A DNA stretch of 64,000 bases from an uncultured Candidatus Poseidoniales archaeon (lineage in GTDB: Archaea > Thermoplasmatota > Poseidoniia > Poseidoniales > Poseidoniaceae). The notes beneath the pieces are model-generated. The model was not told the DNA's origin. It made no database searches and was given only the letters and a program-made list of their open reading frames with translations. This document shows positions 2,175 through 42,127 of this stretch, one piece after another. The stretch covers positions 12,592 to 76,591 of the forward strand of contig CAJJCP010000028.1 of assembly GCA_905182715.1 (NCBI GenBank), in the 5' to 3' direction. How positions within the stretch are numbered: position 1 is the stretch's first letter; every line of letters starts with the position of its first letter. Both the position numbers and the translations under genes were made by a program.

Positions 2175-3521
2175 ATGCCAATCATTATGGGGGTTCGTTT
2201 TCGACCAAAACTGATGTCGGCATTGGATGTACAAACCGGCTCATTCAGTCCGGGGGGAAATCAACGCGGAGTTTCCGGTGCTCCATCCTTCCAAGATGCT
2301 GCTGATGGCTTGGTTTACGGCGTCGATTTACCACCCTCTGCAGATGGCCCTGGCGTCCTCCTTACTGCCGATGGGGGTCGCTATTGTGGGACTCTCTTTG
2401 GAGCACGTGGACATGGTGAAGGGGAATTAGTATTCACGACAGGAATGATGGGGTATCAAGAATCGTTAACCGACCCCTCTTTTGCTGGTCAAGTGCTTAC
2501 ATTCACCTATCCCTTGATTGGAAACTATGGCATTCATGCAGGAGCATCTGAATCTGCCGGAGTATGGCCTCGGGGCGTGGTTGTTCGACATGCTATGCAT
2601 CAACCCGATCACCGGTTCTCAATAGGGAAAGTTGAAGATTTACTCCGCTTACACGGTGTACCTGGCATCCAGGGCATTGATACTCGTTCAATTACTCGAA
2701 GAGTTCGAGAACTTGGAACGGTACTTTGTGTATTTGGCCCAGAGTCAGAAGAAGAACTTTTGCAACAACGACTCAAACATCTCACATCTCCCGATCTTGA
2801 GGACTTGGTTGACCAAGTATCGCTCTCATCACCGGTCGTTCTCAATCCAGGTGCACTGGATGCACTCGACCACCCTCTTCCTCGGCTTGGTGTCCTTGAC
2901 TGCGGGATTAAGTACAATATTTTGCGTAATCTCTGTCTTCATTTCGAAGTGATATGGTGCCCTCCGGAAACCTCTTTCGATGTACTTGTCCATGAATATC
3001 AAATCGATGCCTTATTTTGTTCAAATGGTCCTGGTGACCCTGCTCATCCTGGAAAAGCCACACTGGCCCGTAATACACTTGCTCTGGCAGTTCAAGCGAA
3101 ATTACCTGTCATGGGCATTTGTCTTGGACATCAATTGATGGGACTTGCATCAGGATTGCAAACCTACAAAATGCGCTACGGTCATCGAGGAGCAAACCAA
3201 CCTGTTGTCGATTTGAAAACTGGCTTAATCTCCATTACCAGTCAAAACCATGGTTTTGCAGTTGCAGACCCGGAAGCGGGTATGCTTGCAGCCCATCCCA
3301 GTGGTGCATGTTCTCCCCCTGGTGTCAATCAGCACGGAGCTGAAGTCGTTGTTCGCTTTGTCAATGCAAATGACAGAACAGTCGAAGGATTGGACCTCGT
3401 TGGCCATCCTTCGTTTACAGTGCAATTCCACCCCGAAGCTTGTCCTGGTCCTCATGATGCAGCACCTTTGTTCAAACAATTCCGTGATATTGTAGACGCA
3501 GCATTAGGGGGTGTAAACTGA
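2175..3521 (+). CDS. carA: Carbamoyl-phosphate synthase small (glutamine amidotransferase) subunit. The start is uncertain: the roughly 65-aa N-terminal extension may be an artefact.
   Basis: LVFTTGMMGYQESLTDPSFAGQVLTFTYPLIGNYG and the GATase triad region MGICLGHQL are present. The stop TGA overlaps the carB ATG (ATGA at 3518-3521). Confidence 0.9.
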   Translation: MPIIMGVRFRPKLMSALDVQTGSFSPGGNQRGVSGAPSFQDAADGLVYGVDLPPSADGPGVLLTADGGRYCGTLFGARGHGEGELVFTTGMMGYQESLTDPSFAGQVLTFTYPLIGNYGIHAGASESAGVWPRGVVVRHAMHQPDHRFSIGKVEDLLRLHGVPGIQGIDTRSITRRVRELGTVLCVFGPESEEELLQQRLKHLTSPDLEDLVDQVSLSSPVVLNPGALDALDHPLPRLGVLDCGIKYNILRNLCLHFEVIWCPPETSFDVLVHEYQIDALFCSNGPGDPAHPGKATLARNTLALAVQAKLPVMGICLGHQLMGLASGLQTYKMRYGHRGANQPVVDLKTGLISITSQNHGFAVADPEAGMLAAHPSGACSPPGVNQHGAEVVVRFVNANDRTVEGLDLVGHPSFTVQFHPEACPGPHDAAPLFKQFRDIVDAALGGVN

Positions 3522-18694: not shown

Positions 18695-20500
18695 TCAAAC
18701 ACTCAGGTCGTAGGCGAGCAATCTCATGTAGGTTCCATACACTGTTGTTGAAATGGCTAATGATTCTTCATTAAATCGGTCCATTGTGTCCAGATACGTA
18801 TGGTATTCCCAACTACCGCTTCCGTAACAAACAACGGCACGTCCGTTTTTGCCACCCAAATCATAGACGAAGGGGCAATGGTCGGAATTACAAGGCATTT
18901 GATCGTCGTCTCCTTGGGCTCCATCAAGTAAACTAAATTGAATATCATACTTGTCAGCAATCTCACTTCGTTCTTGTTTATAGAGGTCAGTGATACGGAC
19001 AATGTGCCCGTAATCTTCTTCGTTATTGGTGAATAATTTCAAAGAGTTACCACGGTTCGCAAAATCAGCATCAACGTGATTCATATCGAGATTAATGTAC
19101 AAGCGAAGGTTATCTCTGAGACTGCTTTGCATCTGTTCAACATATGCTCTACTGCCCCACAATCCTTCTTCTTCTCCGCCCCATGTGCAGAATCGAATTG
19201 TACGATCTGGGGTTCCTGTTTCATTGACCACTTCTGCAATTTGGCGGGCCATTTCAAGAATACTCGAAGTTCCAGAAGTATCGTCAACAGCACCTTGTCC
19301 ATGATAGACGGTGTCATGGTGTCCACCAGCGATGACCAATTCAGAAGTTCGTCCTTGAATGGTTCCACACGGCACATATATGGTTCGTTCTTGGTCGTTC
19401 GTCACATCGATAATCAATTCGATGGAGGCAGGTTCAGTTGAATTAATAACCATGGTTTCAAACATTTCACCTGCGTCTTTGGACATCGAGATGAACGGAA
19501 TGTCAGTTGGAAGGTTGCCACCGTTTGCTGCGACCAATGAATCATAGTTGGTACCTTTGAAAATTGGTACACAGTCGTTGCCTTCGATTTGGCCACACTG
19601 GTAATTCTTATTGACACTAATCAGTCCAGCAAGGTCATTGATTGCCGCATTGCTGTAGAGTTCAGTATTACCGACTTTTGAACTGTCTCCACGAACATAG
19701 CCAATGGTTCCAGTAGCAGTTTGCCACAATGCTTCATCGGTTCCGTTGCCGAGGTCGGTCACCGTAATGTCTTCATCAAACATGTATTCAGATTGGCCGG
19801 AGAATCCTTGGATGACGTAATCAACTCGGTGTTGGAAGGGTGTAATTTGAGAACCTCCTGAAATAATTACACCTTCGCAGGCAAGAGAAAATGCACCACG
19901 GACACAGAGTCTGAAACTGGGTTCTGAATTGACATGATGCATAGGAACTTGGAATTCGTTGATTTCTGCAGCATAACCCATCTCTTGGAATTTCTGACTG
20001 ATGTATTGTGAAGTATTTGCTTCTTCTGTTGTCGCACTCATTCGCCCTTCCCAATCAGGATGGCCAAGATTGACGAGGTCTTCTGCAAAGTTCCGAGCTT
20101 GTGTTTGGTCGAAATCAATCAATTCGTAATCATAGTCACGCTCAAATCCTAGCCATGCTGGTTGAATGATAAAAACAGTAGCCGTCACCATGAGTAAAGC
20201 CAATCCGATAGCAACCAGTCCACCGAGATTCAACGGGCCATAGACGGTTGTCGACATGCGTTGTTTGAAGGTAAGAGGAGATTCAAAGTCATCATCTTCT
20301 AAACTCAAATTTGCAGTCATTGTTTCCTCTTTTGCGGTGGAAGCATCATTTCTTTCATCCCAAACACCTTTTGTTGACGCCTCAGATGAAACGAGGCGTT
20401 GAATGAGGAGAGATTTGTTACCACTGACGGCAAGTCCTTGACTGCGTAGCATATCTTTGAGCTCAGCAACAGAGTGCTTTGACAATGCAGATTCGTCCAT
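18695..20500 (-). CDS. Membrane-anchored M28-family zinc aminopeptidase with an N-terminal SAP domain
   Basis: SAP motif SVAELKDMLRSQGLAVSGNKSLLIQRLV, a TM helix GGLVAIGLALLMVTATVFII, and M28 metal ligands (GGHHDTV...DDTSGTS, WGGEEEGLWGS, HTYLD). Confidence 0.8.
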   Translation of the reverse strand: MDESALSKHSVAELKDMLRSQGLAVSGNKSLLIQRLVSSEASTKGVWDERNDASTAKEETMTANLSLEDDDFESPLTFKQRMSTTVYGPLNLGGLVAIGLALLMVTATVFIIQPAWLGFERDYDYELIDFDQTQARNFAEDLVNLGHPDWEGRMSATTEEANTSQYISQKFQEMGYAAEINEFQVPMHHVNSEPSFRLCVRGAFSLACEGVIISGGSQITPFQHRVDYVIQGFSGQSEYMFDEDITVTDLGNGTDEALWQTATGTIGYVRGDSSKVGNTELYSNAAINDLAGLISVNKNYQCGQIEGNDCVPIFKGTNYDSLVAANGGNLPTDIPFISMSKDAGEMFETMVINSTEPASIELIIDVTNDQERTIYVPCGTIQGRTSELVIAGGHHDTVYHGQGAVDDTSGTSSILEMARQIAEVVNETGTPDRTIRFCTWGGEEEGLWGSRAYVEQMQSSLRDNLRLYINLDMNHVDADFANRGNSLKLFTNNEEDYGHIVRITDLYKQERSEIADKYDIQFSLLDGAQGDDDQMPCNSDHCPFVYDLGGKNGRAVVCYGSGSWEYHTYLDTMDRFNEESLAISTTVYGTYMRLLAYDLSV

Positions 20501-22810: not shown

Positions 22811-23002
22811 GTGGCACAAGGTACAGTCAAGTGGTTTAACCAAACAAAAGGATTCGGATTTATTGAAAGAGAAGGTGGCAATGACCTCTTCGTTCACATC
22901 TCAGAAGTAGAAGGCGAAATAACAGACGGGGACACCGTCGAATTCGAAGTCGGCGAAGGTCCAAAAGGACCGAACGCTGTCGGCGTCCGTAAGGTCGAGT
23001 GA
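22811..23002 (+). CDS. csp: Cold-shock protein (CspA family). The GTG start is preferred; the ORF finder's longer ORF begins at 22694.
   Basis: (V/M)[32 protein letters not shown]...[21 protein letters not shown] carries the canonical RNP1/RNP2 cold-shock domain. The GTG at 22811 gives the standard M-x-x-GTVKWFN N-terminus. Confidence 0.75.
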
Positions 23003-23370
23003 AATCACCTCTCGCATACTTTGATGGGCGGAAACGCTCTCCAAGGTTTATGAGCGGAACTCTCTTCATCATTCAAACTACACTTCCACGTTCGTGGGAA
23101 GAATTTGAAATCGGATCATTCTCCCAACTCTTAATAGAAGCTGGCGCAGCATGCGTCCAGAGAACACAGATTCATTCAATGTACAGTTGGGCTGATACGC
23201 TCCATTCTGATTCTGAATGGTCTCTTGAAATTAAAGTGAGTTCCTCAAAAAAAGATACCGTTCTTCTGAAAATAGAAGAACTTCATCCGGATGACACCCC
23301 GCAACTCCTACATTGGGAAGTCCAAGCATCTCAAGGGTACGCTGATTGGACTCAAATAGATCGTAAATGA
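22999..23370 (+). CDS. Hypothetical protein (weak call)
   Basis: 123-aa ORF overlapping the csp stop by 4 nt. No recognisable motifs. Confidence 0.25.
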
Positions 23371-23425: not shown

Positions 23426-23509
23426 GAGTGGAAACGCACCTCTCTCTCTGAGGATTTCAAACCCAATGGTTTTTGTAAATCAGGGGGGGCTGTTTGGAGT
23501 GGAAACGCA
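23426..23509 (+). repeat. Two exact copies of the 13-mer GAGTGGAAACGCA, 71 bp apart, upstream of nrdB
   Basis: Copies at 23426-23438 and 23497-23509; this is a direct repeat, not a palindrome. Possible operator sites. Confidence 0.3.
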
Positions 23510-23716
23510 ACAAAACATAGTGTACTTATTACAGCAAGAACGAGGCCTTTATACTCTGTGGGTAGATATTGCCTTTGTCGACCGCAAGGGATGTTTTTAG
23601 CAAACCAATATCACTCGCCAAATCGCTATGCTACATGGGGAGATGGGGGTGAACATTATACACTACCTCGGAGGGCAAATGAATTCCAGCAAGTGAAACA
23701 AACGGGGGTACGAGTC

Positions 23717-24763
23717 ATGGTCATCGAACAAGGAAAAAAATCAGCAAGTAATGATGGGTTTGAATTAGACCTCTCCCAGGAACATATCGAACCAATGTTA
23801 CAAGAAAATCTTGACCGCTTTGTTTTGTTCCCTATACAACATGCAGAAATCTGGGAAATGTACAAGTTGCACGCTGCCTCTTTTTGGACTGCAGAAGAAA
23901 TCGATCTTGCTGAAGACGCCAAAGATTGGAAGTCATTGAGCGATGACGAGCGCCATTTCCTCAAACACGTTCTCGCCTTCTTCGCAGCAAGCGACGGAAT
24001 TGTGAATGAGAACCTTGTAACCAATTTCGCTGATGAAGTCCAATGGGCTGAAGCACGTTGTTTCTATGGTTTCCAAATTATGATGGAAAATATCCATGCA
24101 GAGACCTATTCTCTTCTCATCGACACCTACATCACTGATGACAAAGAAAAAGATCACTTGTTTAACGCTCTAGAGACGGTCCCATCAGTGAAGAAGAAGG
24201 GCGACTGGGCTATGCGCTGGTTATCTCGTAAGCAGGGTTCCTTTGCTCAACGATTGGTCGCCTTTGCTGCTGTTGAGGGGATTTTCTTTTCCGGCTCTTT
24301 CTGTGCTATCTTTTGGCTCAAGAAGCGCGCTCTCATGCCAGGGCTCACCTTTTCGAATGAACTGATTTCTCGAGACGAAGGCCTTCACTGTGACTTCGCA
24401 TGTTTACTCCACAATCAATTGATCCGTGGAGCTGGAGAAAATATGATTCACAGAATCATTTCTGAAGCAGTGGAAATTGAAATTGAATTCGTTACTTCTG
24501 CACTGCCAGTCTCATTGATTGGGATGAATGCCGACCTCATGCAAGAATATATCCGCTTCGTTGCTGACCGATTAATGGTCTCACTCGGTGCGACTAAATT
24601 GTATAATGCTACAAACCCATTCCCTTGGATGGAAATGATCTCAATGCAAGGTAAAACGAACTTCTTCGAAAAGAGAGTTGGCGAATACCAGAAGGCTGGT
24701 GTCAAAGACGGCGGAAACCTCGGAAGCGTTCAACAACGCTTCTCAGTAGACGAAGACTTTTGA
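23717..24763 (+). CDS. nrdB: Ribonucleotide reductase class Ia small subunit (R2), eukaryote-like
   Basis: [27 protein letters not shown]...[14 protein letters not shown]...[15 protein letters not shown]...[14 protein letters not shown]...FSVDEDF is colinear with eukaryotic RRM2. Ferritin-like diiron ligands are present. Confidence 0.9.
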
Positions 24764-24823
24764 ACCGTATTGGATGAACTAAAGTTATAGCGCAATCACA
24801 CATGAATTAATGGAGGAAAAAAA

Positions 24824-25516
24824 ATGACAATGCAAGTAGTCAATAGAGAAGGCGAGCGAGAGGATGTTCGTTTCGATGCGATACACGATAAACTCAAAAC
24901 ATTAACCTACGGTCTTGATCCAAATTGGATTGACCCAGGGCATGTTACCAAATTGACCATCGAAGGACTCTATGATGGAGTTACGACCCGTGAACTCGAT
25001 CAACTCGCTGCTGAAACCGCAGCTTCTCTCGCTTCTCAACATCCGGATTATAGCCGCCTTGCAGCACGAATTTGTGTTGATGACCTCCATCGCTCAACCA
25101 AGACCGTCTTCTCAGAAGTCATTACTGATTTGCGTGAATACATTGATCCTGAATCAGGGAAGCACGCACCGCTGATTTCTGAAGAAGTCTATTCAATCAT
25201 CATGGCGAATGCAGAGGTTCTGGATAACCATATTGATTACACTCGTGATCACAATTACGACTATTTCGGATTTAAAACTCTCGAACGTTCCTACTTACTA
25301 CGCTTGTATGGCGAAATTGCTGAGCGCCCACAACACATGTTGATGCGTGTTGCAGTTGGTATTCATCACTCCAATATCACGAAGGCCCTGGAAACATACG
25401 ATTTGATGAGTCAAGGCTACTTCACTCACGCAACACCTACTCTGTTTAACTCAGGGAACCCCAACACCTCAGATGTCATCGTGTTTCTTACTCACCATGC
25501 AAGACGATTCACTTGA
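24824..25516 (+). CDS. nrdA: Ribonucleotide reductase class Ia large subunit (R1), N-terminal fragment (ATP cone plus start of the catalytic domain). A +1 frameshift at about 25454-25457 interrupts it.
   Basis: [20 protein letters not shown] (ATP cone) ...[13 protein letters not shown]. The conserved continuation [13 protein letters not shown] is in the +1 frame. Confidence 0.9.
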
Positions 25517-27218
25517 CGGAATTTACGATACACTCAAGCAGTGTGCTTTGATTTCAAAGTCGGCTGGTGGTATTGGTCTCTCGATTCATCACATTCGTTC
25601 AAAGGGCTCTTACATTAAGGGCACTAATGGGCAGAGCAATGGTATTGTTCCAATGCTGCGTGTCTTTAACGACACAGCGCGATATGTCGACCAAGGTGGC
25701 GGCAAGCGTAAGGGCTCCATTGCCATTTACCTCGAACCTTGGCATCCCGATATCCTTGCCTTCCTCGATTTGCGAAAGAATCACGGAAAGGAAGAACTTC
25801 GTGCACGTGATCTCTTCTATGCTCTGTGGACTCCTGATTTGTTCATGGAGCGTGTTGAACAAAATGCCGACTGGTCTTTCTTCTGTCCAAATGAGTGCCC
25901 AGGACTTCAAGATGCCTATGGTGCAGAATTCAAAGAACTCTTCGAATCCTATGAAGCACAAGGATTGGCCCGAGAAACACTCCCTGCACGAGTTGTCTGG
26001 GACAAATTAGTTGAATCTCAAATTGAAACTGGAACTCCATATATGTTGTACAAGGATGCAGCAAATGAAAAGTCCAACCAAAAGAATCTGGGAACAATTC
26101 GTTCATCGAACCTTTGTACTGAAATTATGGAATACACAGCTAAAGACGAAGTTGCGGTCTGTAACCTCGCATCGATTGCCCTCAACAAATACGTAGATGT
26201 AGCAAATCAATCTTTCAATCATCAACTCTTGTATGACGTGGCTTACCACGCAACTGGGAATCTGAATCGAGTCATCGATGTCAATTACTATCCGGTTGAG
26301 GAAGCTCGTAATTCGAACATGCGCCACCGACCAATCGGTCTTGGTGTTCAAGGTCTTGCTGATACATTTGCTCTTCTAAAGTTGCCTTTCGAGAGCCCTG
26401 AAGCCCGAAAACTCAACAAAGAAATTTTCGAAACAATTTACTTCGCTGCTTGTACCGCTTCGAAGGATGGAGCCATGGTCGAAGGGCCGTACTCAACTTT
26501 CCAAGGTTCACCTGCAAGTAAGGGTGATTTGCAATTCGACCTTTGGGGAATGAATGAACACAGTGGACGATGGGACTGGACTTCTCTGAAAGCAGAGATT
26601 GTTGAGCATGGAATGCGTAATTCACTTCTTGTTGCTCCAATGCCGACTGCTTCGACTTCACAGATTCTTGGAAATAACGAATGCTTTGAAGCGTTCACAT
26701 CGAACCTCTATGTTCGTCGAACTCTTTCTGGTGAATTCATTGTATTGAACAAGCATCTTGTTCGAGATCTCATTGAATTAGGAATTTGGGGAATTGAAAT
26801 GAAAGATGAAATCCTTCGTCACAAGGGCTCAGTTCAGAACATTGCAGGAATTCCTGACCATGTCAAAGAGTTGTACAAAACAACTTGGGAAATCAAGCAA
26901 CGTCACGTCTTGGACATGTCTGCTGACCGCGGTGCATACGTTGACCAAAGTCAATCACTCAACATCCACATGGTCGATGCAAACCCGGCTAAAGTCACTT
27001 CAATGCACTTCTACGGATGGAAGCAGGGACTCAAAACTGGAATGTACTATCTCCGAACCAAGGCTGCAGCAGATGCAATTCAATTCACTGTTGAAGCAAA
27101 GAAAGCTGAAGATCAAACCGTTGGTGGATTAGCTGAGCGTGCTGAAGACATTTCAAGTCTCGAAGCCATCGCTTGTTCACTTGATACGCCTGATGACTGC
27201 CTTAGTTGCGGTTCATGA
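25455..27218 (+). CDS. nrdA: Ribonucleotide reductase R1, C-terminal fragment continuing from the frameshift
   Basis: [47 protein letters not shown]...[15 protein letters not shown]...[15 protein letters not shown]; very eukaryote-like, including the C-terminal CxxC tail. Confidence 0.9.
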
Positions 27219-27348: not shown

Positions 27349-28164
27349 TTAAGCCGAATGAATCGCATGGCCAAGAGTTGCAAGAACAGCTTCATGGGTC
27401 ATTTCAGTCATGGTCGGATGTGCATGGATTGTTCCAGCAATGTCTTCGAGTAAAGCACCCATCTCAAGAGCGAGCGTCCACTCACCGACCAGCTCACTGA
27501 TGTGAGTACCGACACCTTGGATTCCAAGAATACGATGATCATCTTCCCGTGCGCATACTCGAACAAATCCAGCAGTCTTTTCTGCTTCTTGAGTGAGTGC
27601 GCGTCCGTTTGCTCCCAAGGGGAACTTTCCGATAATCACTGGGTGTCCAGCAGCCTTTGCTTCTTCGGGTGAAAGTCCAACGGATACAATCTCTGGTTCA
27701 GTGAACACAATTGCAGGAACTGCGACTGGATCGTATGCCCGCTTGTGACCGGCGATGATTTCAGCAACCATTTCTCCTTGGAAAGATGCGACGTGGGCCA
27801 ACATTTCTCCTGAATCACATACATCGCCAATTGCATAAACGCCACGCATGTTGGTTTCACAACGGTCGTTGACTTTTACAAACCCACGTTCATCCAAAGC
27901 AACGCCTGTTGGCGCCAGAGATGCTGAGTTTGGTTTTCGGCCAACCGTGACCAGTACTTTGTCGACAATGATGTTCTGCATTTTCGATTCGTCTTTTTCA
28001 TTTTTGTCAATGAAGTTGAGTTGTGTGCGACCGTCTTTTGCTTTTTCAACACCTTTTGCGAAACACACCGAGATGGGTCTTAATTTTCTGCTTCTTAATT
28101 GAAATTTCAAGCGGTCGTCGCAGTTCCTTGTCAAAGATTGGCAGGACACTGTCCATTGCTTCAA
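27349..28164 (-). CDS. lpdA: Dihydrolipoyl dehydrogenase (E3), C-terminal fragment (NAD-binding part, central and dimerisation domains)
   Basis: AKGVEKAKDGRTQLNFID...TVGRKPN...VYAIGDV...HAHPTMTEM match E3. It joins the upstream fragment through a 1-nt frameshift near 28055-28065. Confidence 0.85.
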   Translation of the reverse strand: MKQWTVSCQSLTRNCDDRLKFQLRSRKLRPISVCFAKGVEKAKDGRTQLNFIDKNEKDESKMQNIIVDKVLVTVGRKPNSASLAPTGVALDERGFVKVNDRCETNMRGVYAIGDVCDSGEMLAHVASFQGEMVAEIIAGHKRAYDPVAVPAIVFTEPEIVSVGLSPEEAKAAGHPVIIGKFPLGANGRALTQEAEKTAGFVRVCAREDDHRILGIQGVGTHISELVGEWTLALEMGALLEDIAGTIHAHPTMTEMTHEAVLATLGHAIHSA

Positions 28165-28780
28165 CGACAGTCACTTCAGAACCGAGCATTCGGAATGTGA
28201 TCCCAAGTTCAAGCCCGATGTACCCTCCACCAACGATGGCGACGTGCTTTGGTAATTCTTCAAGCGTCAAAGCCTCACGAGAGGAAATGACGTTTTCGTC
28301 ATAAGGCATGAATGGAAGTTCAATTGGGACTGATCCATTGGCAAGAATGACATGTTCAGCTTGGATGATGGTGGCATCTTTCCCTTCACCGACTTTGACT
28401 GTTTTCGCGTCTTGGAATTCTGCCCACCCGATGATGAGTTCAGCACCTGCATTCTTGAGCAAATGTTCGACGCCTTTGTTGAGCCGAGTGACGATCCCTT
28501 CTTTCCATGAGACTAAGTTCCCCATGTTCAATTCAGCAGGCCCGGGGATTGAGATCCCCATGTGCCCATCATTTGATGCATGCTTTGCTAATTTGTGGAA
28601 TTGATGTGCGGCGTGGATCAAAGCCTTCGATGGAATACAGCCTCTGATGAGACAGGTTCCACCTGCTTTTTCACCTTCGACGATGATGGTTGACAAACCG
28701 AGTTGTCCTGCGCGAATGGCAGCAACATATCCTCCAGGGCCGGCTCCGATGACGAGAACTTGACATTTTTTAGTTTGCAT
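28046..28780 (-). CDS. lpdA: Dihydrolipoyl dehydrogenase (E3), N-terminal fragment (FAD-binding and redox-active disulfide)
   Basis: VLVIGAGPGGYVAAIRAGQLG...GGTCLIRGCIPSKAL...VAIVGGGYIGLELG. The reading frame leaves the conserved sequence at ...DKEL..KKQKIKTHLGVF. Confidence 0.85.
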   Translation of the reverse strand: MQTKKCQVLVIGAGPGGYVAAIRAGQLGLSTIIVEGEKAGGTCLIRGCIPSKALIHAAHQFHKLAKHASNDGHMGISIPGPAELNMGNLVSWKEGIVTRLNKGVEHLLKNAGAELIIGWAEFQDAKTVKVGEGKDATIIQAEHVILANGSVPIELPFMPYDENVISSREALTLEELPKHVAIVGGGYIGLELGITFRMLGSEVTVVEAMDSVLPIFDKELRRPLEISIKKQKIKTHLGVFRKRC

Positions 28781-34505: not shown

Positions 34506-37460
34506 ATGGTGAACAGAGTGTCCTCAACGCATGCAACTTCCGTCAACCGCCTTTTACCCGTCCTTTTGGTCATCTTGCTCATCGGCTCAATTCTTCCGAT
34601 GACAGCACCTTCTTCACCCTCGACGTCATTCGATTCTGTTCTCGAAGATGAACCGAGTGTATTGCCCGCAGGAAACGATTGCAATGCGTGCCAATCATAC
34701 GACCTGTATCTCGATGAAATGACCTCAGAGGCTGGCGGAGATGGTTCAATCACCACAGAGGAACCTTCAGGCTCTCACCAAGAAATGAGTGCGCTGGGTG
34801 GAATTCAATTCCGTAGTAATGAAATGATTTCCGATCTCGCAGTGTATGGCCGTGACAATACCGACAAAGTAACTTTGACTGTATTCATGCAATTCAAAGG
34901 TACGGAAGGTTCCACTGCTGATGTTACCTACTCTTTGGACTCTGGTGGCTCAGAAATTGATTCAGTCTCTGAAACTCGAGATGACCCTTGTACCAGCAAT
35001 GTCCTTGGAACAAGCAGTTGTCCCTGGGTGACCACTACAATTGATTTCGAAATACCTTCGAGTGGGTTCATGGTTGAAAACGGTGAGCAACTCGAGTTGA
35101 ACATCGATGCTCAGGCAACATGTGAGAGCAGCACCGGCGGAGTTGGTGGCGGCAGTTGTGAAGTGAATGTCGCTTTCGGCGATGTTGAAGATACTTCTGG
35201 AACTTCCAAACTCGAACTCAAAGCGAATGCTCTTGCAGACTCTTCTGTCCGAGTTCACCGCCCAGGAGCTAGTTTCCTTGACCAAGAAGTGACTGAATGG
35301 TCACCAAATCACCGCCCAGATTTCCGTACCATGCAATTCACTGTTGATGTTCGAAATGCTTTCGGTCGTGATGATATTCAAAACGTTGATTTGATTATGA
35401 GTACACCTAATGGTGCAAATTCTGAGTTCGATAAAACATTCGACGATGATGAACTTAAGTTGGATAATCAAGGATTGATTGGAAATTATACGTGGACGTA
35501 TGACTCTGGAATAAGTGCTGGAGATTATCCATTACGACTTGAAATCAGCGACGTCCAAGGCCATACACTTGTCTTTGAACATTCAGGAATCACTTTTATT
35601 GAGCATGACATCTACCTTTCTCTCCCTTCTTCTCAGCCAGATACTGTTCTGATTGCTCCAGGGCAAACGTCCAGTATTGAATTTTTGATAGAACATACTG
35701 GCTCTACCTCTTCATCAATGAATATCGTCTTTGATTTGGTAGGTTCACCTTTCCCTTCATCATGGTCTGACCCTATATGGGATCAAGCCGGTGGATATAC
35801 GCTCAATGGTGGAGGCACCTTTGCTCGCCCGATACTTTCCTTTGATGTGGTTGATGGTGATCTTACCAATGCTCCAAGCAGTATTGAAATCGAAGCCCGA
35901 GCATATGCAGATACTGAGAATGCCCAAAACGACCAAGTCGCGATTAAGACAATTGTTCTATCGATTGAAGAATCCGATGTCCTCGCGCCACCCCGTATTG
36001 CAGTCTTTGAAGACTTTGAACATCAAATACAAATTGCCGATTCAACTCGTGTTGATGCCTATGATGAGACACTTTCCCATTATGTTGATGCTGGTGATAC
36101 CAAAGGCGAATTCTTTGTTGATGTCTTTAATGCTGGATTTATTACCGATTCGTTCCGATTGCGGGTTACGGATTTACCCGACGCTTGGCAATTCAAATTC
36201 TTCGATAACGACACAGGGATGGAACTGACTGAAGAAGGAATTTATTCAACCACTCCTGACATTGGTTCAAATCAAATTCTCACTCTGCGCATGGAAATAT
36301 TCCCTCCAAATGAGCGCGATGCCCAAGATATTGGTTTGGTTGAGTTTTCAGTTTCCAGTACCGCCGATACCGAACTCAGCACACAAATAGCGTTCACAGT
36401 CCATCGAACCTTTGGTATCTTAGTGGAAGTCATAGCAGACTCTGACGGGGGGACACTCGGGACCGTTGGTCCAGTTTCACCAGGCTCAAGCATGTATTAC
36501 AATATGCGAATCACCGATTCAAGTGAAACACTTGGTCAAACGACATGGCGGATTAAAAATCCTGCTGAATTAGATCGAAACCTCGAAACTCCGGACGGTA
36601 ATCCCGACTATGGTACTTGGGATTATGATATCTCGAATGGGACCGAATCGAACATCGTTGTCGTCTATCTCGAAGCAGATGAGCACGTAGATATCAAGCT
36701 TGATTTGACTTTGCGTTCCAAGGTCGAGGCCGGATTCCATACGATTTATGTCCGTGTCATCGAAGAAGGCGTTGATTCTGAAGAGGCGCGATACTTCGAC
36801 TTACCAATTACTGTTGAAGTCCGAGATGATGTTCAACCAGGGCAACTTGAAATCACCGATGCGAGTACCGAAATTATCCGATTTGAATCGGATGAAGAAC
36901 GTAACATCAACTTCAAGATTGATAATCAAAACAACATACCTCTCGACGTGGTCATCACTTTGGAAGAACCCGATGGCTGGGATGGCTTGATTCGTGCATC
37001 CTCTGACCAAAACGGAGGAAGTTTCCTCCTGCTCACACTTCCTGCTTACTCGAGTAAAGATTTCTCAGTTGCAGTTACGCCACCTTCAAATTTGAAAGAC
37101 GGTGATGATGTGAAATTCACCCTTACAGTTACGCCGATGGATGAGGAAGTACCTTACGATAGTGAATTCACACAAATCATGTCGTTTTCATACCAAACTG
37201 AATGTTCTGGAATCGCATGTCTACTGAATGAGATTATGAATCCAGAACCTCAAACTTTCGCACTTGGAATTGGCCTGGCATTTGTTCTCATCTTTGCAGT
37301 ATATCGTCGTGGACAAAATGCTGGTGTTGGGAGCGAACCTCATCAAACTTGGGTCGACGAAGAGTTCGATTTCGGACTCGAAACAGTCGAACCAGTTGTG
37401 GAACCTGTTGTCGAAGAAGATGATGATTTGGAACTTTTAGATGAACTTGAAGATCTTTGA
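34506..37460 (+). CDS. Large secreted or cell-surface protein (984 aa) with an N-terminal signal/anchor and a C-terminal TM helix plus acidic tail
   Basis: N-terminal LLPVLLVILLIGSILPMTAPS; C-terminal FALGIGLAFVLIFAVYRRGQ followed by an acidic tail (EEDDDLELLDELEDL). Internal beta-rich segments have no enzymatic motifs. Confidence 0.6.
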   Translation: MVNRVSSTHATSVNRLLPVLLVILLIGSILPMTAPSSPSTSFDSVLEDEPSVLPAGNDCNACQSYDLYLDEMTSEAGGDGSITTEEPSGSHQEMSALGGIQFRSNEMISDLAVYGRDNTDKVTLTVFMQFKGTEGSTADVTYSLDSGGSEIDSVSETRDDPCTSNVLGTSSCPWVTTTIDFEIPSSGFMVENGEQLELNIDAQATCESSTGGVGGGSCEVNVAFGDVEDTSGTSKLELKANALADSSVRVHRPGASFLDQEVTEWSPNHRPDFRTMQFTVDVRNAFGRDDIQNVDLIMSTPNGANSEFDKTFDDDELKLDNQGLIGNYTWTYDSGISAGDYPLRLEISDVQGHTLVFEHSGITFIEHDIYLSLPSSQPDTVLIAPGQTSSIEFLIEHTGSTSSSMNIVFDLVGSPFPSSWSDPIWDQAGGYTLNGGGTFARPILSFDVVDGDLTNAPSSIEIEARAYADTENAQNDQVAIKTIVLSIEESDVLAPPRIAVFEDFEHQIQIADSTRVDAYDETLSHYVDAGDTKGEFFVDVFNAGFITDSFRLRVTDLPDAWQFKFFDNDTGMELTEEGIYSTTPDIGSNQILTLRMEIFPPNERDAQDIGLVEFSVSSTADTELSTQIAFTVHRTFGILVEVIADSDGGTLGTVGPVSPGSSMYYNMRITDSSETLGQTTWRIKNPAELDRNLETPDGNPDYGTWDYDISNGTESNIVVVYLEADEHVDIKLDLTLRSKVEAGFHTIYVRVIEEGVDSEEARYFDLPITVEVRDDVQPGQLEITDASTEIIRFESDEERNINFKIDNQNNIPLDVVITLEEPDGWDGLIRASSDQNGGSFLLLTLPAYSSKDFSVAVTPPSNLKDGDDVKFTLTVTPMDEEVPYDSEFTQIMSFSYQTECSGIACLLNEIMNPEPQTFALGIGLAFVLIFAVYRRGQNAGVGSEPHQTWVDEEFDFGLETVEPVVEPVVEEDDDLELLDELEDL

Positions 37461-37551
37461 GTTTTTTGCCGACACTTTGGCTGAGGAATGCTCTACTGCG
37501 GCCCCCTTTCTTTGAAAGTCCCGTCGAGTTAATACTCCGTGAAATGAAGTA

Positions 37552-40512
37552 TTGTATGAACATCGCACCATTTCCCTTATGAGGCATCAAACCAGCCCGT
37601 CAACAGTGAATCCAATGCGCACGACTGTTTCTCCCTCCGAGCCGCGCTTCCAATGGCAGATTCTTCAACATCGGAACGCCTTCAAATCGTTCTCCTTAGC
37701 GGCCTTGATGGTGCTCTCAACATTTGCTGCAATCCCGTATATTTCGATGGATGCCCTCGCCGCTTCTGACCAAGATGGAGATGGTTTGACCTATGGTTTG
37801 GAATACCTCATGAATACCGCTCCAAATGACCCTGATTCTGATAACGACGGTTTGCCTGATGGATGGGAATGGCAATACGGCCTCGATCCTCTTTCGAGTA
37901 ACGGCGGAGATGGCGCAGTTGGCGATCCTGATGGCGATGGGATGTCGAATCTACAAGAGTATTCATACTTACAACCCCAAAATTGGGACAGCTCCTCAAC
38001 ACCTGGAGTTCTTGACATGGGTGTTTGGTGGAACGGTACAGTTCCAGTTAACGATTGGAATGAAGAAGGCGCCCTACAATACAACAGACCTGGCTGCGGT
38101 GATAGTGGCTCAGATGGCGTTGGTAGCGTGATTCTTTGTGACGAAGACCCCGTAGGAAATATTTGCACGAATGGTTTCGATGATGATAAAGACGGCCTTG
38201 TTGATTCTGCTGACCCAGATAATGATGGGGATGCAGATTGTTCTTCCAATGATGATGATGGCGATGGTATTGCTGATGAAGACGTGGCCGGTTGGGATAC
38301 TGACGGCGACGGAATGGATGACGGTTGGGAGGCTGCAAACGGCCTCAATGCCACATCCGCTTCCAATGCAGACGGACCGAACGGCGACCCTGACGGTGAT
38401 GGCTTGACCAACCTCATGGAATATGTCAATCCTTCATGGACAACGATGTGTGGTACTTCTCCTTGTTTCCGTAATGGCCCAGATGGTGTTGTTACTGAAA
38501 CTATTTCACCTTGCGACCCTGTTTCTGGAATTGGACCAGGTGGCTGTGCAACCTCTACTGCCGAAGTTGATGGTATTACGAGCACAAACCCCCAACGCGC
38601 AGATACCGATGGTGACGGATTAAACGACTCCTATGAGGCATTGACGCTCTTGACAGATCCAACATCTGCCGATACAGACCGCGATGGAATCGATGACGGC
38701 GTTGAAGTCAACGGCGCATATGGTATCCCTCCTCAACCCAGCAATCCCCGTGACAACAACACCGACGGTGACGCCTTTGATGACGGTGAAGAAGATACCA
38801 ATTTCAACGGTGTTTTAGATGCAGGTGAAACCGACCCTACGCGAATGGAAGATTCAGGCGATGAAGACAATGATGGTATTCAGAATTGGGAAGAAAATCT
38901 TTCATGCACGACATGGGATATTGCCGATACCGATTTTGGTGGAATAAACGATGGTGATGAGCGCAATATTTCACACGGAACAGACCCTTGTGACTCGATC
39001 ATCAATTTTGATACGACCATCGTCACTTGGAATTCAGGTACCAGCCAACTTCAAGTTACAGATGGAACCGGATTCAATCCAAGTGGTGGTGTCGGATGGT
39101 ACAACACTTCTGGTACATGGATTCCTTTTGCTTATGTGAGTACGGTGAATAATGCCATACAAGGGGTATCAACCGCTCCAAATGCTGGTGTGACGCAAGT
39201 CGCAAACCGCAACGGTTCTTTCTGCCATACATCGGCAACAGCCGCAGGAACGATTGGTACAACTCAGCAATATTGTGACGATGATTATTCTGATTCCGAT
39301 GGTGATGGCCTTGCAGATTGGCAAGAGTTACTGGGAACCTTCGGTTGGTTTTCGAACCCAACACTCGCAGATACAGATGCTGATGGTGTGAGTGATTTTG
39401 ATGAAGTCTTTGACAACACCGATCCGAATCAGCCTTGTACGAATTTACTCGATGAGGATTTAGACGGCTTGAACAATTATTTTGAAACGACAACTGGTTG
39501 TGACCTTTCTTGGATTGGAATCCTCAACGGTTCAACAGATGTGTGGATTACTGATGATGTGACGGGTGATACCGATGCCGGAGGCGTTGGAGACCGTGAT
39601 GAATATTTTGATGGTACTAACCCGCAAAACGATCCGACCGATGACTTATTGCCTGCTGATTTTGATGGCGATGGTATTCCTGATGCTGTTGAAAACCAAA
39701 CAGGAACTGATTGGACCAACCCTGATACTGACGGTGGTGGAATGATTGATGGCCTTGAATGCCCTCAGGAATTCTGGATTATCGGTTGTCAAGGTTCGCC
39801 TTTCGACCCGTTTGATCCAACCGATGATTTGATTTCATCTGAAATTGTCTTTTGGGCAAACAACACCACAGGTGTTGTTGACATTGATTCAATACATCGA
39901 TGGCGCCAAACGACCAATGATTTCTACACCGGTACAACCTATGCTCATCTTGAAGCAGTCCATCCATACGAATCGATGGTTCTTCCTTATTCGAATCTGA
40001 CGCATCTTGCAGACCTTACCTTTTCAAACGAAACTCTGGATTGGATGATTACCTATCAGAATCCATTAAATTCGGGTAATCTTCCCGTCCCATATTCACT
40101 TTCGAACTTATCGTTCTTTGTGGACCTTGCAGGGGAATTACAACGTTCCAATGATACACATAACGTCAATGTGATTACTGGGCCGATTCAAGAAATCTTT
40201 GTTCAGCAACCAGAGTACTTTTTCGATTGGGCAACACTTGCATCAACAACAGTGCCAGGTATAAATTCGAGTTATAATTTGGTTTTGCCACCCACCTTCA
40301 GTGATCCATCACACCCTCACTCCTACCTCCTCAACGTTACGACTGCAGTCATTACTGAGGCTGGTGCGACCAATGCATATGACAGTGCTGCGGCTTTGCA
40401 AACCTTCCTGACTGAAGGAAATGCAACGACTGATTTCAAGCGTAACTACGACGGTTCTGGAATCCCTTCTTCCGAAGATTTGAGCGTGACCTTGGTACAA
40501 GCCACTGCGTGA
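37552..40512 (+). CDS. Giant surface protein, segment 1 of 3: signal peptide plus thrombospondin type-3-like Ca-binding repeats. It probably continues by frameshift into 40490..42127.
   Basis: Signal-like FSLAALMVLSTFAAIPYISMDALAAS, then many D-x-D-x-DG-x-x-D repeats (DSDNDGLPDGWE, DPDGDGMSNLQEY, DTDGDGLNDSYE and others). The frame-1 stop at 40510-40512 lies just upstream of the transglutaminase Cys motif encoded in frame 2. Confidence 0.7.
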   Translation: MYEHRTISLMRHQTSPSTVNPMRTTVSPSEPRFQWQILQHRNAFKSFSLAALMVLSTFAAIPYISMDALAASDQDGDGLTYGLEYLMNTAPNDPDSDNDGLPDGWEWQYGLDPLSSNGGDGAVGDPDGDGMSNLQEYSYLQPQNWDSSSTPGVLDMGVWWNGTVPVNDWNEEGALQYNRPGCGDSGSDGVGSVILCDEDPVGNICTNGFDDDKDGLVDSADPDNDGDADCSSNDDDGDGIADEDVAGWDTDGDGMDDGWEAANGLNATSASNADGPNGDPDGDGLTNLMEYVNPSWTTMCGTSPCFRNGPDGVVTETISPCDPVSGIGPGGCATSTAEVDGITSTNPQRADTDGDGLNDSYEALTLLTDPTSADTDRDGIDDGVEVNGAYGIPPQPSNPRDNNTDGDAFDDGEEDTNFNGVLDAGETDPTRMEDSGDEDNDGIQNWEENLSCTTWDIADTDFGGINDGDERNISHGTDPCDSIINFDTTIVTWNSGTSQLQVTDGTGFNPSGGVGWYNTSGTWIPFAYVSTVNNAIQGVSTAPNAGVTQVANRNGSFCHTSATAAGTIGTTQQYCDDDYSDSDGDGLADWQELLGTFGWFSNPTLADTDADGVSDFDEVFDNTDPNQPCTNLLDEDLDGLNNYFETTTGCDLSWIGILNGSTDVWITDDVTGDTDAGGVGDRDEYFDGTNPQNDPTDDLLPADFDGDGIPDAVENQTGTDWTNPDTDGGGMIDGLECPQEFWIIGCQGSPFDPFDPTDDLISSEIVFWANNTTGVVDIDSIHRWRQTTNDFYTGTTYAHLEAVHPYESMVLPYSNLTHLADLTFSNETLDWMITYQNPLNSGNLPVPYSLSNLSFFVDLAGELQRSNDTHNVNVITGPIQEIFVQQPEYFFDWATLASTTVPGINSSYNLVLPPTFSDPSHPHSYLLNVTTAVITEAGATNAYDSAAALQTFLTEGNATTDFKRNYDGSGIPSSEDLSVTLVQATA

Positions 40513-42127
40513 AGGGAGTTGTTCAGAATTCAACACAGCATTCGTCACTATGGCTCGTCTTGCTGGATTGCCTGCCCGAATGGTGACCGGTTTCTCTGGC
40601 GGTATTTGGAACGGTGATGGTTATTCTGTTTACCCAACACATTTGTCCACATGGGGTGAAGTTCGATTGCAACAAAACTCTGCGAGTGGCGACACTGAAC
40701 TTGGATGGATTGCATTCGATGCCTGCCCCGCTGCTGAAGAAGTTGAAATTGTGAATCAAACTATTTCCTCTTTCACCTTTGACCGAGATGGTACGGTCTT
40801 GCTCAACGTGTCCGGGCAATTGCGCTACAGCGAAAACTTGTCCTCCATTTCAGAACATTCACTTACCGGATATCTTGTCCCAATGGCCTTAGAAAATGAA
40901 ATTCCTGGTCAGGCTGCAGTTCCAAACTTTGAGTTTGGTTCAGACATTACGCTTGCTGATGGAACCTTTACTTTCAACGGAACTCCTCCTGAATTGGACG
41001 GGCCGGGTATGTATCGAGTGGTTGTCAAACTCCTTCAATCAGGCTATGTTGCTGAAGCAGGAGTGATTTTTGAAGGATACATTAACGTGACAGAAGATTC
41101 AGTTCTCAGTCACACTGCTCCAAATGCAATCAATGCTCCAATTGCTGGTGCCGGAGCTTTAACAGTCATTGAAGGTAGGCTTTCATTGGAAAATGCCCCT
41201 ACGAATAATATTGCAAACATTGGAGTCAATGATTTGACGCCACCATCGGTCTGGTTGACCTATACATCTTCCGTGACCGGTTTCACAAACTTGAGCAGTT
41301 TCATGAACATTGACGGTACTTGGAGTTTTGATTTGAATCTCGACCCACTTGAAACGAAGACAAATCTTTCTGCAATTCTTGGATTCTCTGGATGGCAAGA
41401 TACGCAAGCAACCGGTATTACTCCAACTCAATTCCATTTGCGTCCTTCGACCACTTCGATTGTAATTGATGTGCGTGATGCGCCAAACTTGACCGCAACT
41501 CTTGAAGGGCCACTTGCCAATAACAGCGTCCTTCTCATCGGCGATAACCTATGGGTAAACGGTACGACTCTCACGACTGGAGCATCACCTGTGCCAATGG
41601 CAGGTAATCTTTCGCTGTCAATTCGAGAAAACGAGACTTCACAGGATTGGACTCAAGTGTTTAACCAAAGTGTTAACGGAGCGTTTAGCATCCAACATTT
41701 ACTTTTGGCAGCAGATGCTCAAGTCATGGCTGGAATTCTCGAAATTCAGATACGCTTCTTCCCCAACGCTATCGAAGCAACCGATGACGCGAATGTGACT
41801 GCAGGTGGCCCTTACCTACTGCGTGGCACGCTCATTTTCGAAGTACAAGCGAGTGCCCAATTAAGGGGGACAGATGCTACTGTCTTAGTCAGTGCAATCG
41901 ATCATCGTGGTGTGAATACAGACCTTCTTCTCTCTGGTAATTTTGATTTCACCTTCAATGGAAACTGGGTCAACACAACCGTCGATCCGCAAACTGAAAC
42001 AATGACTATCAACTGGTTGATTGATTCAACCCTCTTTGCTGGTGATTATATTTCATCACAATTCCATCAATGGTTCCGATTTGTATCAACCATCAATCGG
42101 CATGAGTACGGTTCGTGTTGCTGCTGA
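40490..42127 (+). CDS. Giant surface protein, segment 2 of 3: transglutaminase-like core and following beta-rich region, in the +1 frame relative to segment 1
   Basis: REGSCFRFNTAFVTMARLAGLPARMVTGF (Cys motif G-x-C...FV..AR.AGLPAR.V.G), then ...PTHLSTWGEV (His) and ...IAFDACP (Asp), a complete TGase-like Cys-His-Asp triad. The Cys lies upstream of the ORF finder's ATG at 40550, and there is no start codon between the frame-2 stop (40487-40489) and the Cys. Confidence 0.65.
   Translation, partial: PWYKPLREGSCSEFNTAFVTMARLAGLPARMVTGFSGGIWNGDGYSVYPTHLSTWGEVRLQQNSASGDTELGWIAFDACPAAEEVEIVNQTISSFTFDRDGTVLLNVSGQLRYSENLSSISEHSLTGYLVPMALENEIPGQAAVPNFEFGSDITLADGTFTFNGTPPELDGPGMYRVVVKLLQSGYVAEAGVIFEGYINVTEDSVLSHTAPNAINAPIAGAGALTVIEGRLSLENAPTNNIANIGVNDLTPPSVWLTYTSSVTGFTNLSSFMNIDGTWSFDLNLDPLETKTNLSAILGFSGWQDTQATGITPTQFHLRPSTTSIVIDVRDAPNLTATLEGPLANNSVLLIGDNLWVNGTTLTTGASPVPMAGNLSLSIRENETSQDWTQVFNQSVNGAFSIQHLLLAADAQVMAGILEIQIRFFPNAIEATDDANVTAGGPYLLRGTLIFEVQASAQLRGTDATVLVSAIDHRGVNTDLLLSGNFDFTFNGNWVNTTVDPQTETMTINWLIDSTLFAGDYISSQFHQWFRFVSTINRHEYGSCCC

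Follow-up and report, generated by a model that had tools for sequence, protein, structure and literature searches.

The analysed window, 64,000 nucleotides of a contig from the Poseidoniaceae (Poseidoniales), carries a two-gene operon in which nrdB is followed by nrdA, and the encoded ribonucleotide reductase (RNR) subunits, R2 and R1, firmly belong to the eukaryote-type NrdAe/NrdBe clade (Table 1). The explanation that best fits the observations, and that is considered highly probable as a whole, is that this is a housekeeping eukaryote-type class Ia operon which was acquired on the Poseidoniales stem, and that the interruption of R1 seen in the window is an error. Class I RNRs are seldom found among Archaea. 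Those described in the literature searched are bacterial-type enzymes of Halobacteria, and no discussion of which type of RNR Marine Group II (MGII)/Poseidoniales have was found there. If the proposed explanation is correct, then the surface ocean's dominant planktonic archaea use a eukaryote-type RNR, and their oxygen-dependent lifestyle would be tied to a borrowed enzyme. The interest of the operon is evolutionary and enzymological; it is not a new kind of system.

Table 1. Features of the nrdB-nrdA operon and its upstream region (positions within the window).
Feature	Position	Strand	Details
Conserved non-coding region upstream of R2	23497..23716	+	Alignment of 13 loci
nrdB, R2 small subunit, eukaryote type	23717..24763	+	ORF, 348 aa
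R2-R1 spacer, 60 nt	24764..24823	+	GGAGG 8 nt before R1 ATG
nrdA, R1 large subunit, interrupted in window	24824..27218	+	797 aa once one base removed
ATP-cone domain of R1, divergent	24830..25093	+	Pfam PF03477
+1 insertion frameshifting R1	25454..25458	+	One extra G or A in GGGAA (TCAGGGAACCCC)

Subunits of a eukaryote-type class Ia enzyme

A preliminary description of this DNA proposed a eukaryote-like class Ia RNR, encoded as R2 then R1, that is colinear with RRM2/RRM1 and more similar to eukaryotic than to bacterial class Ia enzymes. Searches of PDB sequences bear this out over the full length of both subunits. R1 scored 1134 bits with human RRM1 and 1086 bits with yeast Rnr1, as opposed to 526 bits with the Pseudomonas aeruginosa enzyme and approximately 206 bits with that of E. 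coli, while R2 scored 485 bits with mouse R2 and approximately 50 bits with E. coli. Global identity of R1 to human is 61.1%; R1 is 61% identical to yeast (the human-yeast pair itself is 67% identical), and identity to bacterial R1 proteins other than those of Bacteroidota is 38-43%. R2 has a global identity of 65.7% to mouse, with a mammalian range of 66-68%. The E. coli NrdAB enzyme, the class Ia prototype (NrdAg), has the same fold, chemistry, and domain set, but the low scores place it in a different subclass. In comparison to eukaryotic RRM1/RRM2 (yeast Rnr1/Rnr2), the archaeal enzyme differs in being encoded by a prokaryotic two-gene operon and in its ATP-cone (see below), and, relative to opisthokont R1, it has GGGKRKGS in place of GGNKRPGA and one extra residue before RWDW.

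The domains and residues expected of such an enzyme are present. R1 has PF00317 and PF02867 domains on record and scores 687 bits with TIGR02506 (cut-off 341), and its neighbour R2 is annotated with PF00268, corresponding to a separate ferritin-like small subunit; R2 falls below every curated prokaryotic NCBIfam cut-off. The R2 start at 23717 (MVIE...) is backed by relatives whose in-frame stretch upstream spans just a few codons. Alignments with eukaryotic enzymes show that R1 retains the catalytic cysteines (C220, C431, and C446), N429, E433, the tyrosine dyad (Y741 and Y742), and the C-terminal CxxC shuttle (C792/C795), and that R2 retains all six metal ligands (D93, E124, H127, E187, E221, and H224) and the radical pathway residues W57 and Y324. 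The radical residue Y131 of R2 aligns with mouse Y177 and is Tyr, not Phe as in class Ic. The motifs named in the preliminary description (the ATP cone, the R1 tail, and an R2 FxxDxDF terminus, here FSVDEDF) were likewise all located. Judged by the R1 barrel and cysteines together with the separate R2, the operon is class I, and the presence of the radical Tyr and an intact radical-transfer pathway assigns it to class Ia, with the cofactor itself being predicted.

Based on these conserved residues and on established class Ia chemistry, a catalytic cycle can be proposed. The R2 dimer would build a dimetal-oxygen centre on its six ligands, and oxidation of Y131 by this centre would leave a stable radical there. 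From Y131, the radical equivalent would pass by way of R2 W57 and Y324 to R1 Y742/Y741 and reach the active-site residue C431 of R1, where the resulting thiyl radical would start ribonucleoside diphosphate reduction, with C220/C446 as the predicted reducing pair, helped by N429/E433. The C-terminal pair C792/C795 would re-reduce the active site from thioredoxin or glutaredoxin, and the R2 tail is expected to dock on R1.

The ATP-cone of R1 is divergent. It scores 30.9 bits against PF03477 (cut-off 25.8), versus 66 bits for both the human and Fulvitalea domains. In E. coli, Lys9 and Lys21 contact the ATP-cone nucleotide (PMC8772380). At the equivalent positions (human K5/K17), every one of the 120 archaeal representatives has N7 and A19, but Lys occupies both positions in each of the 201 Bacteroidota representatives, in human and yeast, in both phages, and in all three NCLDV sequences. 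Among the outgroups, Georgenia and Bdellovibrio have Lys at both positions and a baculovirus has it at neither; the Cellulophaga phage has no aligned FDK motif in this comparison. D59 of the archaeal R1 (human D57) is kept. Since two nucleotide-contacting lysines have been lost lineage-wide, overall-activity (dATP/ATP) regulation is probably weakened or altered in Poseidoniales R1. Their loss provides a naturally occurring test of how overall activity is regulated in an R1 resembling the human one.

Relatives and origin

The closest non-archaeal relatives of both subunits are from marine Bacteroidota, namely Cytophagales (such as Fulvitalea, Roseivirga, and Fulvivirga) and Vicingaceae (R1, 65-70% identity; R2, 70-73% identity), which share the nrdB-nrdA order. 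The eukaryote-type class I RNR of marine Bacteroidota has been attributed to eukaryote-to-bacteria horizontal transfer (Lundin et al. 2010, PMC3019208). Neighbor-joining (NJ) bootstraps separate the NrdAe-like sequences from actinobacterial, proteobacterial, and Bdellovibrio R1 at 100%, and unite archaea, Bacteroidota, and human/yeast R1 at 90%. Both subunits fall within the eukaryote-type clade and not in bacterial class Ia, in agreement with the preliminary description. These trees are to be read as indicative, as they were made with our own NJ-bootstrap and fixed-topology maximum likelihood (ML) code, the latter using a Gonnet-derived rate matrix and fixed backbones with no tree search. Additionally, the named eukaryotes in the sample were human and yeast for R1 and mouse/human for R2, taken from PDB alignments; all are opisthokonts, and therefore the donor cannot be named.

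The preliminary description had left open whether the operon was acquired by, or ancestral to, the archaeal lineage. Acquisition is much better supported than a role as ancestor of the eukaryotic enzyme: the nearest relatives outside the archaea belong to marine Bacteroidota with a published eukaryote-derived RNR, and placing the archaea specifically with opisthokont eukaryotes was disfavoured at RELL ≤0.04. The operon would have entered the Poseidoniales stem by horizontal transfer from a eukaryote-type gene pool that also takes in marine Bacteroidota, giant viruses, and flavobacterial phages, and since then it would have passed down by vertical inheritance, taken on the composition of its host, and be highly expressed. 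Such an acquisition carries the transfer published for eukaryotes and Bacteroidetes over a second boundary between domains, and it adds a third, independent lineage with which the spread of eukaryote-type RNR can be dated and polarised.

A refinement of this explanation, to which about even chances are given, is that a single transfer to a marine prokaryote, with a (non-opisthokont) eukaryote or a giant virus as donor, was followed by exchange between Bacteroidota and the Poseidoniales ancestor, such that the archaeal operon is the sister of the Bacteroidota one and no independent capture took place. In addition to the top outside identity for both subunits and the shared gene order, the archaea and Bacteroidota have in common the SGRWDW indel state and a surface seawater habitat. 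An NJ tree of 174 sequences places archaeal R1 as sister to Bacteroidota, and in a 21-taxon R1 ML comparison the placements next to Bacteroidota or the intein-bearing sequence P0123 sum to RELL 0.76. Similarly, the archaeal sequences are more similar to Bacteroidota than to opisthokonts by 5-7 percentage points, versus 2-3 points for outgroup representatives. However, Bacteroidota are slow-evolving, which inflates their identity to everything, and a 13-taxon R1 ML comparison prefers the archaea outside a group of Bacteroidota plus opisthokonts by 8.5 lnL (RELL 0.75 versus 0.21). ML comparisons of R2 and of the concatenation gave ties between archaeal placements, and nesting of the archaea in crown Bacteroidota was rejected (lnL -20356 versus -20309).

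The basal placement (RELL 0.75 with 13 taxa, and 0.24-0.33 with 21 taxa) could alternatively mean that the Poseidoniales RNR lies below the eukaryotic plus Bacteroidota crown, as an early offshoot of, or near, the eukaryotic source, and the origin of eukaryotic class I RNR is unsettled in the literature (PMC3019208). Yet the archaeal stem branch is long, and a basal position is the expected long-branch artefact; moreover, viral, Vibrionaceae, and phage members branch deeper still in the eukaryote-type clade. Poseidoniales are not known to be the archaeal relatives of eukaryotes, and no other archaeal group appears among the close matches listed. The 61% identity to human is also near the human-yeast value, pointing to the level of the crown group rather than to a split before LECA. 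This alternative is thus regarded as quite improbable. If it were true, abundant marine archaea would preserve an early offshoot or donor relative of eukaryotic RNR, and one that dispensed with canonical ATP-cone regulation. Horizontal acquisition remains preferred, and an old event that is now fully ameliorated and functional appears likeliest.

Viral sequences were also compared. The 50% cluster representatives merge archaea, Bacteroidota, and eukaryotes in one clustering, and the top 150 of them are mostly giant-virus-like, many with inteins; some of the nearest appear to lie on contigs with giant-virus-like gene content. None of these representatives is closer to archaeal R1 than Bacteroidota are, and a profile search for protist R1 gave Bacteroidota matches only. 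The NrdAe-like RNRs of NCLDV and of Tenacibaculum/Cellulophaga phages are marine members of the same subclass (52-62% identity), but their identity is lower and many of them contain inteins. A magrovirus vector is unsupported, as the archaeal allele occurs in no IMG/VR virus (64% identity at most).

Cellular class I enzymes offer further points of comparison. The marine Bacteroidota NrdAB differs from the archaeal one in belonging to another domain of life and in its canonical ATP-cone, and the archaeal clade is long-stemmed. Halobacteria, the only archaea with known class I RNRs in 2010, have bacterial-type enzymes in two groups, one of them being class Ic, where Phe occupies the radical position, and often together with nrdR (PMC3019208). 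The Poseidoniales enzyme resembles these in having an archaeal host and, as proposed here, a horizontal origin, but it is eukaryote-type, has a radical Tyr, and has no nrdR adjoining the operon.

Interruption of R1

In the window, R1 is not a single open reading frame. A frameshift that the preliminary description overlooked divides it into one frame of 230 aa at 24824-25516 and another of 581 aa at 25473-27218, and the upstream frame ends with ...TLFNSG. As a consequence, the GTPxPQ-SSCFLL loop reported in that description is present, but it is readable only by changing frame at the extra base.

If the frameshift were real, then R1 would be a pseudogene, be made as two polypeptides, or depend on programmed frameshifting, and dNTPs would come from another RNR or from salvage. 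The extra base is indeed present in the sequence as given. However, it has no counterpart in any of 84 related loci (80 species loci and four close contigs), and removal of one base yields a 797-aa R1 with no further defects that is identical at 796 of 797 positions to database protein P0001, which is intact on six contigs; this match to an intact allele indicates that the gene is not decaying. The split falls within the catalytic barrel, immediately ahead of C220, and therefore the two pieces are not expected to function. Since relatives lack the extra base, there is no slippery-site conservation among them, and programmed frameshifting was rejected. An essential E3 gene 2.6 kb away is also split by an isolated +1 insertion, which fits an error process, and the closest contigs show variable splits of another gene. 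A real frameshift is therefore very unlikely, and the split most probably reflects a one-base error in sequencing or assembly rather than biology. In annotating this contig, the breaks in R1 and in E3 should both be taken as probable indel errors.

Distribution, composition, and expression

In a scan of GTDB species genomes, 461 matched, and the best 80 of these are all Poseidoniales (86-99% identity), including CM001443.1, the MG-II genome of 2012. In all of these 80, R2-R1 lies beside the same dUTPase/LipB and 2-oxoacid dehydrogenase genes, and the gene order is also matched in four contigs at 94-96% DNA identity. The flanking genes in the window are archaeal, as had been noted at the outset, and include aRF-1 (TIGR03676, 437 bits), an archaeal class I LysRS, an archaeal UMP kinase, and aTrm56. 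GC content and codon use of the operon agree with the flanks, and GC3 is 0.40-0.41 for R1 and 0.46 for R2 (window mean 0.393, sd 0.028); as composition carries no signal of recent transfer, the acquisition is likely to be old. An assembly chimera or contamination, in which a eukaryotic, viral, or Bacteroidota fragment was joined to an archaeal contig, has the eukaryote-like sequence itself as its sole point in favour and is effectively refuted by the conserved synteny, as the left and right junctions are both repeated in 80 species-level genomes that come from many studies, and also in a chromosome of 2.06 Mb. The host-like composition and the lack of any IMG/VR viral contig above 64% identity also speak against it.

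In metagenome-assembled genomes of both Poseidoniales families, ribonucleoside-diphosphate reductase is among only six highly transcribed non-ribosomal genes (PMC9723583). The eukaryote-type RNR is apparently a highly expressed housekeeping gene in Marine Group II.

Operon layout and upstream region

R2 and R1 may be co-transcribed; their same-strand adjacency is kept in 80 loci, and no terminator-like site was found between the two genes. An Rfam scan of the window gave a tRNA and nothing else. Upstream of R2, the conserved region contains a GAGTGGAAACGCA box, a palindrome-like TGTAnTTATTACA, and an archaeal TATA-like CCTTTATA, as well as a nearly invariant 70 nt leader that ends in a GGGGG Shine-Dalgarno-like run. 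A riboswitch-like element in this leader was considered and rejected, as RNAalifold gave no supported structure. The conserved boxes may have a regulatory role, which is putative; the motif is found upstream of R2 in 11 loci and occurs twice in the window, versus 0.09 occurrences expected.

A eukaryote-type ribonucleotide reductase in an archaeal genome

The small (R2, nrdB) and large (R1, nrdA) class Ia ribonucleotide reductase (RNR) subunits of the window had been described, from the sequence, as eukaryote-like to a degree well above bacterial class Ia enzymes, and database comparisons bear this out. In searches of all PDB chains, R1 scored 1134 bits against human RRM1 and 1086 bits against yeast Rnr1, versus 526 bits against the P. 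aeruginosa enzyme and ~206 bits against that of E. coli; the corresponding scores for R2 were 485 bits (mouse R2), 435 bits (yeast Rnr2), and ~50 bits (E. coli). Global identity was 61.1% to human and 61.0% to yeast R1, which are themselves 67% identical, and 65.7% to mouse R2. R2 fell below the cut-off of every curated prokaryotic small-subunit model in NCBIfam, and R1 cleared only the generic NrdE_NrdA model. With functional positions assigned by mouse and human numbering and checked against the letters of the two proteins, R2 keeps all six metal ligands, Y131 as the radical tyrosine, W57, and Y324, and R1 keeps C220, N429, C431, E433, C446, Y741, Y742, and the C-terminal C792/C795. As read from the two proteins, the full residue set for class Ia chemistry is present.

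Features of the RNR region
Feature	Position	Strand	Remarks
GAGTGGAAACGCA box	23426-23438 and 23497-23509		2 copies in the window vs 0.09 expected
TGTAnTTATTACA site	within 23497-23716		palindrome-like; conserved across loci
CCTTTATA box	within 23497-23716		conserved across loci
Leader, 70 nt	within 23497-23716		nearly invariant; conserved across loci
R2	23717-24763	same as R1	ORF, 348 aa
R1	24824-27218	same as R2	two ORFs in different frames: 24824-25516 (230 aa) and 25473-27218 (581 aa)
R1 ATP-cone	24830-25093
R1 N7	24842-24844		equivalent of human K5 (E. coli K9)
R1 A19	24878-24880		equivalent of human K17 (E. coli K21)
Dihydrolipoamide dehydrogenase (E3) gene	27349-28780	minus	broken by a single isolated +1 insertion at ~28060-28064; parts 27349-28164 and 28046-28780

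Flanking genes for aRF-1, a class I LysRS of archaeal type, an archaeal UMP kinase, and aTrm56 confirm the archaeal setting; an XPD/Rad3 helicase and large Asp-rich repeat surface proteins are encoded there as well. Close homologues carry the names Candidatus Poseidoniales or Poseidoniaceae. A scan of a genome collection gave matches in 461 species genomes, of which the best 80 are all Poseidoniales (86-99% identity) and include CM001443.1, the Marine Group II (MG-II) chromosome. In those loci, as in the window, R2-R1 has dUTPase/LipB on one side (with or without Csp and a CutA-like gene) and a convergent E3-E2-E1b-E1a-LipA cluster on the other. This synteny, recurring in the best 80 of the 461 genomes, shows that the contig is no chimera and that the lineage stably maintains the operon. 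Base composition was also compared with the surrounding genes. R1 (GC 0.448, GC3 0.40-0.41) lies inside the range of the window (GC3 mean 0.393, sd 0.028) and R2 is somewhat GC3-rich (0.464), as is the cold-shock gene, a pattern more in keeping with high expression than with recent import.

Three side observations concern gene content. Very large secreted or surface proteins (984-1508 aa, rich in Asp-Gly-Asp repeats) are clustered at 34506-46547 and 52815-57011. A small ORF that separates the cold-shock gene from R2 (22999-23370) matches the divalent-cation tolerance protein CutA below the curated cut-off (56.7 vs 120 bits), and its position is kept in closer Poseidoniaceae loci. Finally, a contig labelled Verrucomicrobiales bacterium (NZEQ01000089.1) has R2-R1 85-87% identical to the Poseidoniales genes, and is probably a mis-binned archaeal contig.

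The R1 reading frame

In the ORF list of the window, R1 is broken in two. Near 25454 the sequence reads TTT AAC TCA GGG AAC CCC; the first frame gives ...TLFNSG, and the loop motif continues in the second. Removal of one base from GGGAA yields a 797-aa protein that differs by one residue (E578Q) from P0001, an intact database allele of R1. The GTPxPQ-SSCFLL loop quoted in the preliminary description is therefore real, yet it sits astride a frameshift that had been overlooked. R1 is unbroken, with one base fewer at GGGAA, in all 80 species-level loci (the best 80 of 461 matched genomes), and is likewise unbroken and one base shorter in four P0001-encoding contigs with 94-96% DNA identity to the window. 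Comparisons over 14.8-37.2 kb revealed only two isolated, uncompensated one-base insertions within genes, namely this one and that in E3, which is absent from related loci L001-L004 and L177-L180 and is a probable second indel error, 2.6 kb from the first. Furthermore, an M28 peptidase/SAP-domain gene that is a single 601-aa ORF in the window (18695-20500) is split into 426+90, 362+242, or 344+154 aa in three near-identical contigs (L177-L179, ~3850-5675); such errors thus vary between assemblies, which points to assemblies of such data being prone to indels. Besides the insertion, comparison of the corrected protein with P0001 showed no further decay in R1. Given its uniqueness among relatives, the second lone insertion, the M28 splits, and this intactness, the split in R1 most probably arose through an error in sequencing or assembly. 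Elsewhere, ORFs 40550-42127 and 42021-46547, on the same strand with ~100 nt of overlap, may be a single gene cut by another indel.

Relatives and origin of the operon

Outside the archaea, tblastn of plasmids identified an R1 in Fulvitalea axinellae (Bacteroidota) with 65.6% identity and nrdB-nrdA gene order. Searches from this sequence and with a profile recovered hundreds of Cytophagales and Vicingaceae proteins with 65-69% identity to archaeal R1, and the nrdB-nrdA order is found in two more Bacteroidota loci. For both subunits, Bacteroidota had the highest identity outside the archaea.

Identity to the archaeal proteins
Group	R1	R2
Bacteroidota	66-70%	70-73%
Human/yeast (R1), mammalian (R2)	61-62%	66-68%
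Tenacibaculum and Cellulophaga phages	54-59%
Photobacterium, plasmid-borne copy	56%	53%
Contigs taken as giant viruses	53-58%
Actinobacterial, Bdellovibrio, proteobacterial	39-43%	31-35%

Identity to IMG/VR contigs did not rise above 64%, and hence nothing indicates a viral carrier for the archaeal allele. Among the nearest 50%-cluster representatives, many are R1s of 1000-1900 aa with one to four inteins, recurrently near archaeal residues 290, 432, 460, 550, and 760, and the contigs of two of them (L093, L094, and L095) have a gene content that looks like giant viruses. In Tenacibaculum phage pT24 (genes at 1931-2923 and 3001-5430), R2 shares 80.6% identity with one Bacteroidota R2, but R1 only ~58% with any Bacteroidota R1; its two subunits appear to have different histories.

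Trees were built by neighbour joining (NJ) with bootstrap and by purpose-written fixed-topology maximum likelihood (ML; Gonnet-derived rate matrix, four gamma categories, RELL); the named eukaryotes were opisthokonts only, which limits statements on the donor. By NJ, eukaryote-type R1, including the archaeal proteins, separated from other bacterial R1 at 100% bootstrap, and archaea, Bacteroidota, and human/yeast grouped together at 90%. Within this clade, NJ of 174 sequences paired archaea with Bacteroidota, and in a 21-taxon ML analysis placements next to Bacteroidota or P0123, an intein-bearing environmental sequence, summed to RELL 0.76, versus 0.24 for a basal position. In contrast, with 13 R1 taxa archaea below Bacteroidota plus opisthokonts led by 8.5 lnL (RELL 0.75 vs 0.21), and R2 and the concatenation tied between sister-to-Bacteroidota and basal placements. 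The archaeal stem branch is long, and a basal pull is therefore an expected artefact. An exclusive group of archaea and opisthokonts was disfavoured by ML (RELL 0.04 or less), and nesting of the archaea within crown Bacteroidota was rejected. A deep-sister relationship of the archaeal RNR to that of eukaryotes is unlikely.

Overall, the preliminary interpretation holds in its essentials: an MG-II genome houses a class Ia RNR operon of eukaryote type, which was acquired long ago and has been conserved. The operon is not peculiar to this contig, as public genomes have contained it ever since deposition of the MG-II chromosome, and a bacterial precedent is published: class I RNRs of marine Bacteroidetes derived from within eukaryotes (Lundin et al. 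2010, PMC3019208). At that time, archaeal class I RNRs were all bacterial-type and confined to Halobacteria (PMC3019208). We found no paper linking MGII or Poseidoniales to RNR type.

Activity regulation and expression

The human K5 and K17 equivalents are Asn and Ala in 120/120 archaeal cluster representatives; T19H and R12D are additional changes in the archaeal ATP-cone. Lysine occupies both positions in 201/201 Bacteroidota representatives, human, and yeast, as well as in Tenacibaculum phage, Photobacterium, three giant-virus-like sequences, Georgenia, and Bdellovibrio, and neither position in baculovirus. The Pfam ATP-cone score is 30.9 bits for archaeal R1, down from 66. In E. coli, Lys9 and Lys21 form hydrogen bonds with the ATP-cone nucleotide (PMC8772380); the loss of these lysines and the lower score suggest that overall-activity (dATP/ATP) regulation of archaeal R1 may be weakened, lost, or altered.

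The 220 nt 5' of R2 contain blocks conserved among loci with a coding identity of only 82-95%; the proximal of the two GAGTGGAAACGCA copies is among the blocks kept in diverged Poseidoniaceae loci. RNAalifold gave no supported or conserved RNA structure upstream of R2, and the region probably comprises a promoter and regulator sites. In a metatranscriptome study (PMC9723583), a ribonucleoside-diphosphate reductase was one of just six genes, ribosomal ones aside, with high transcription in MAGs from both Poseidoniales families.
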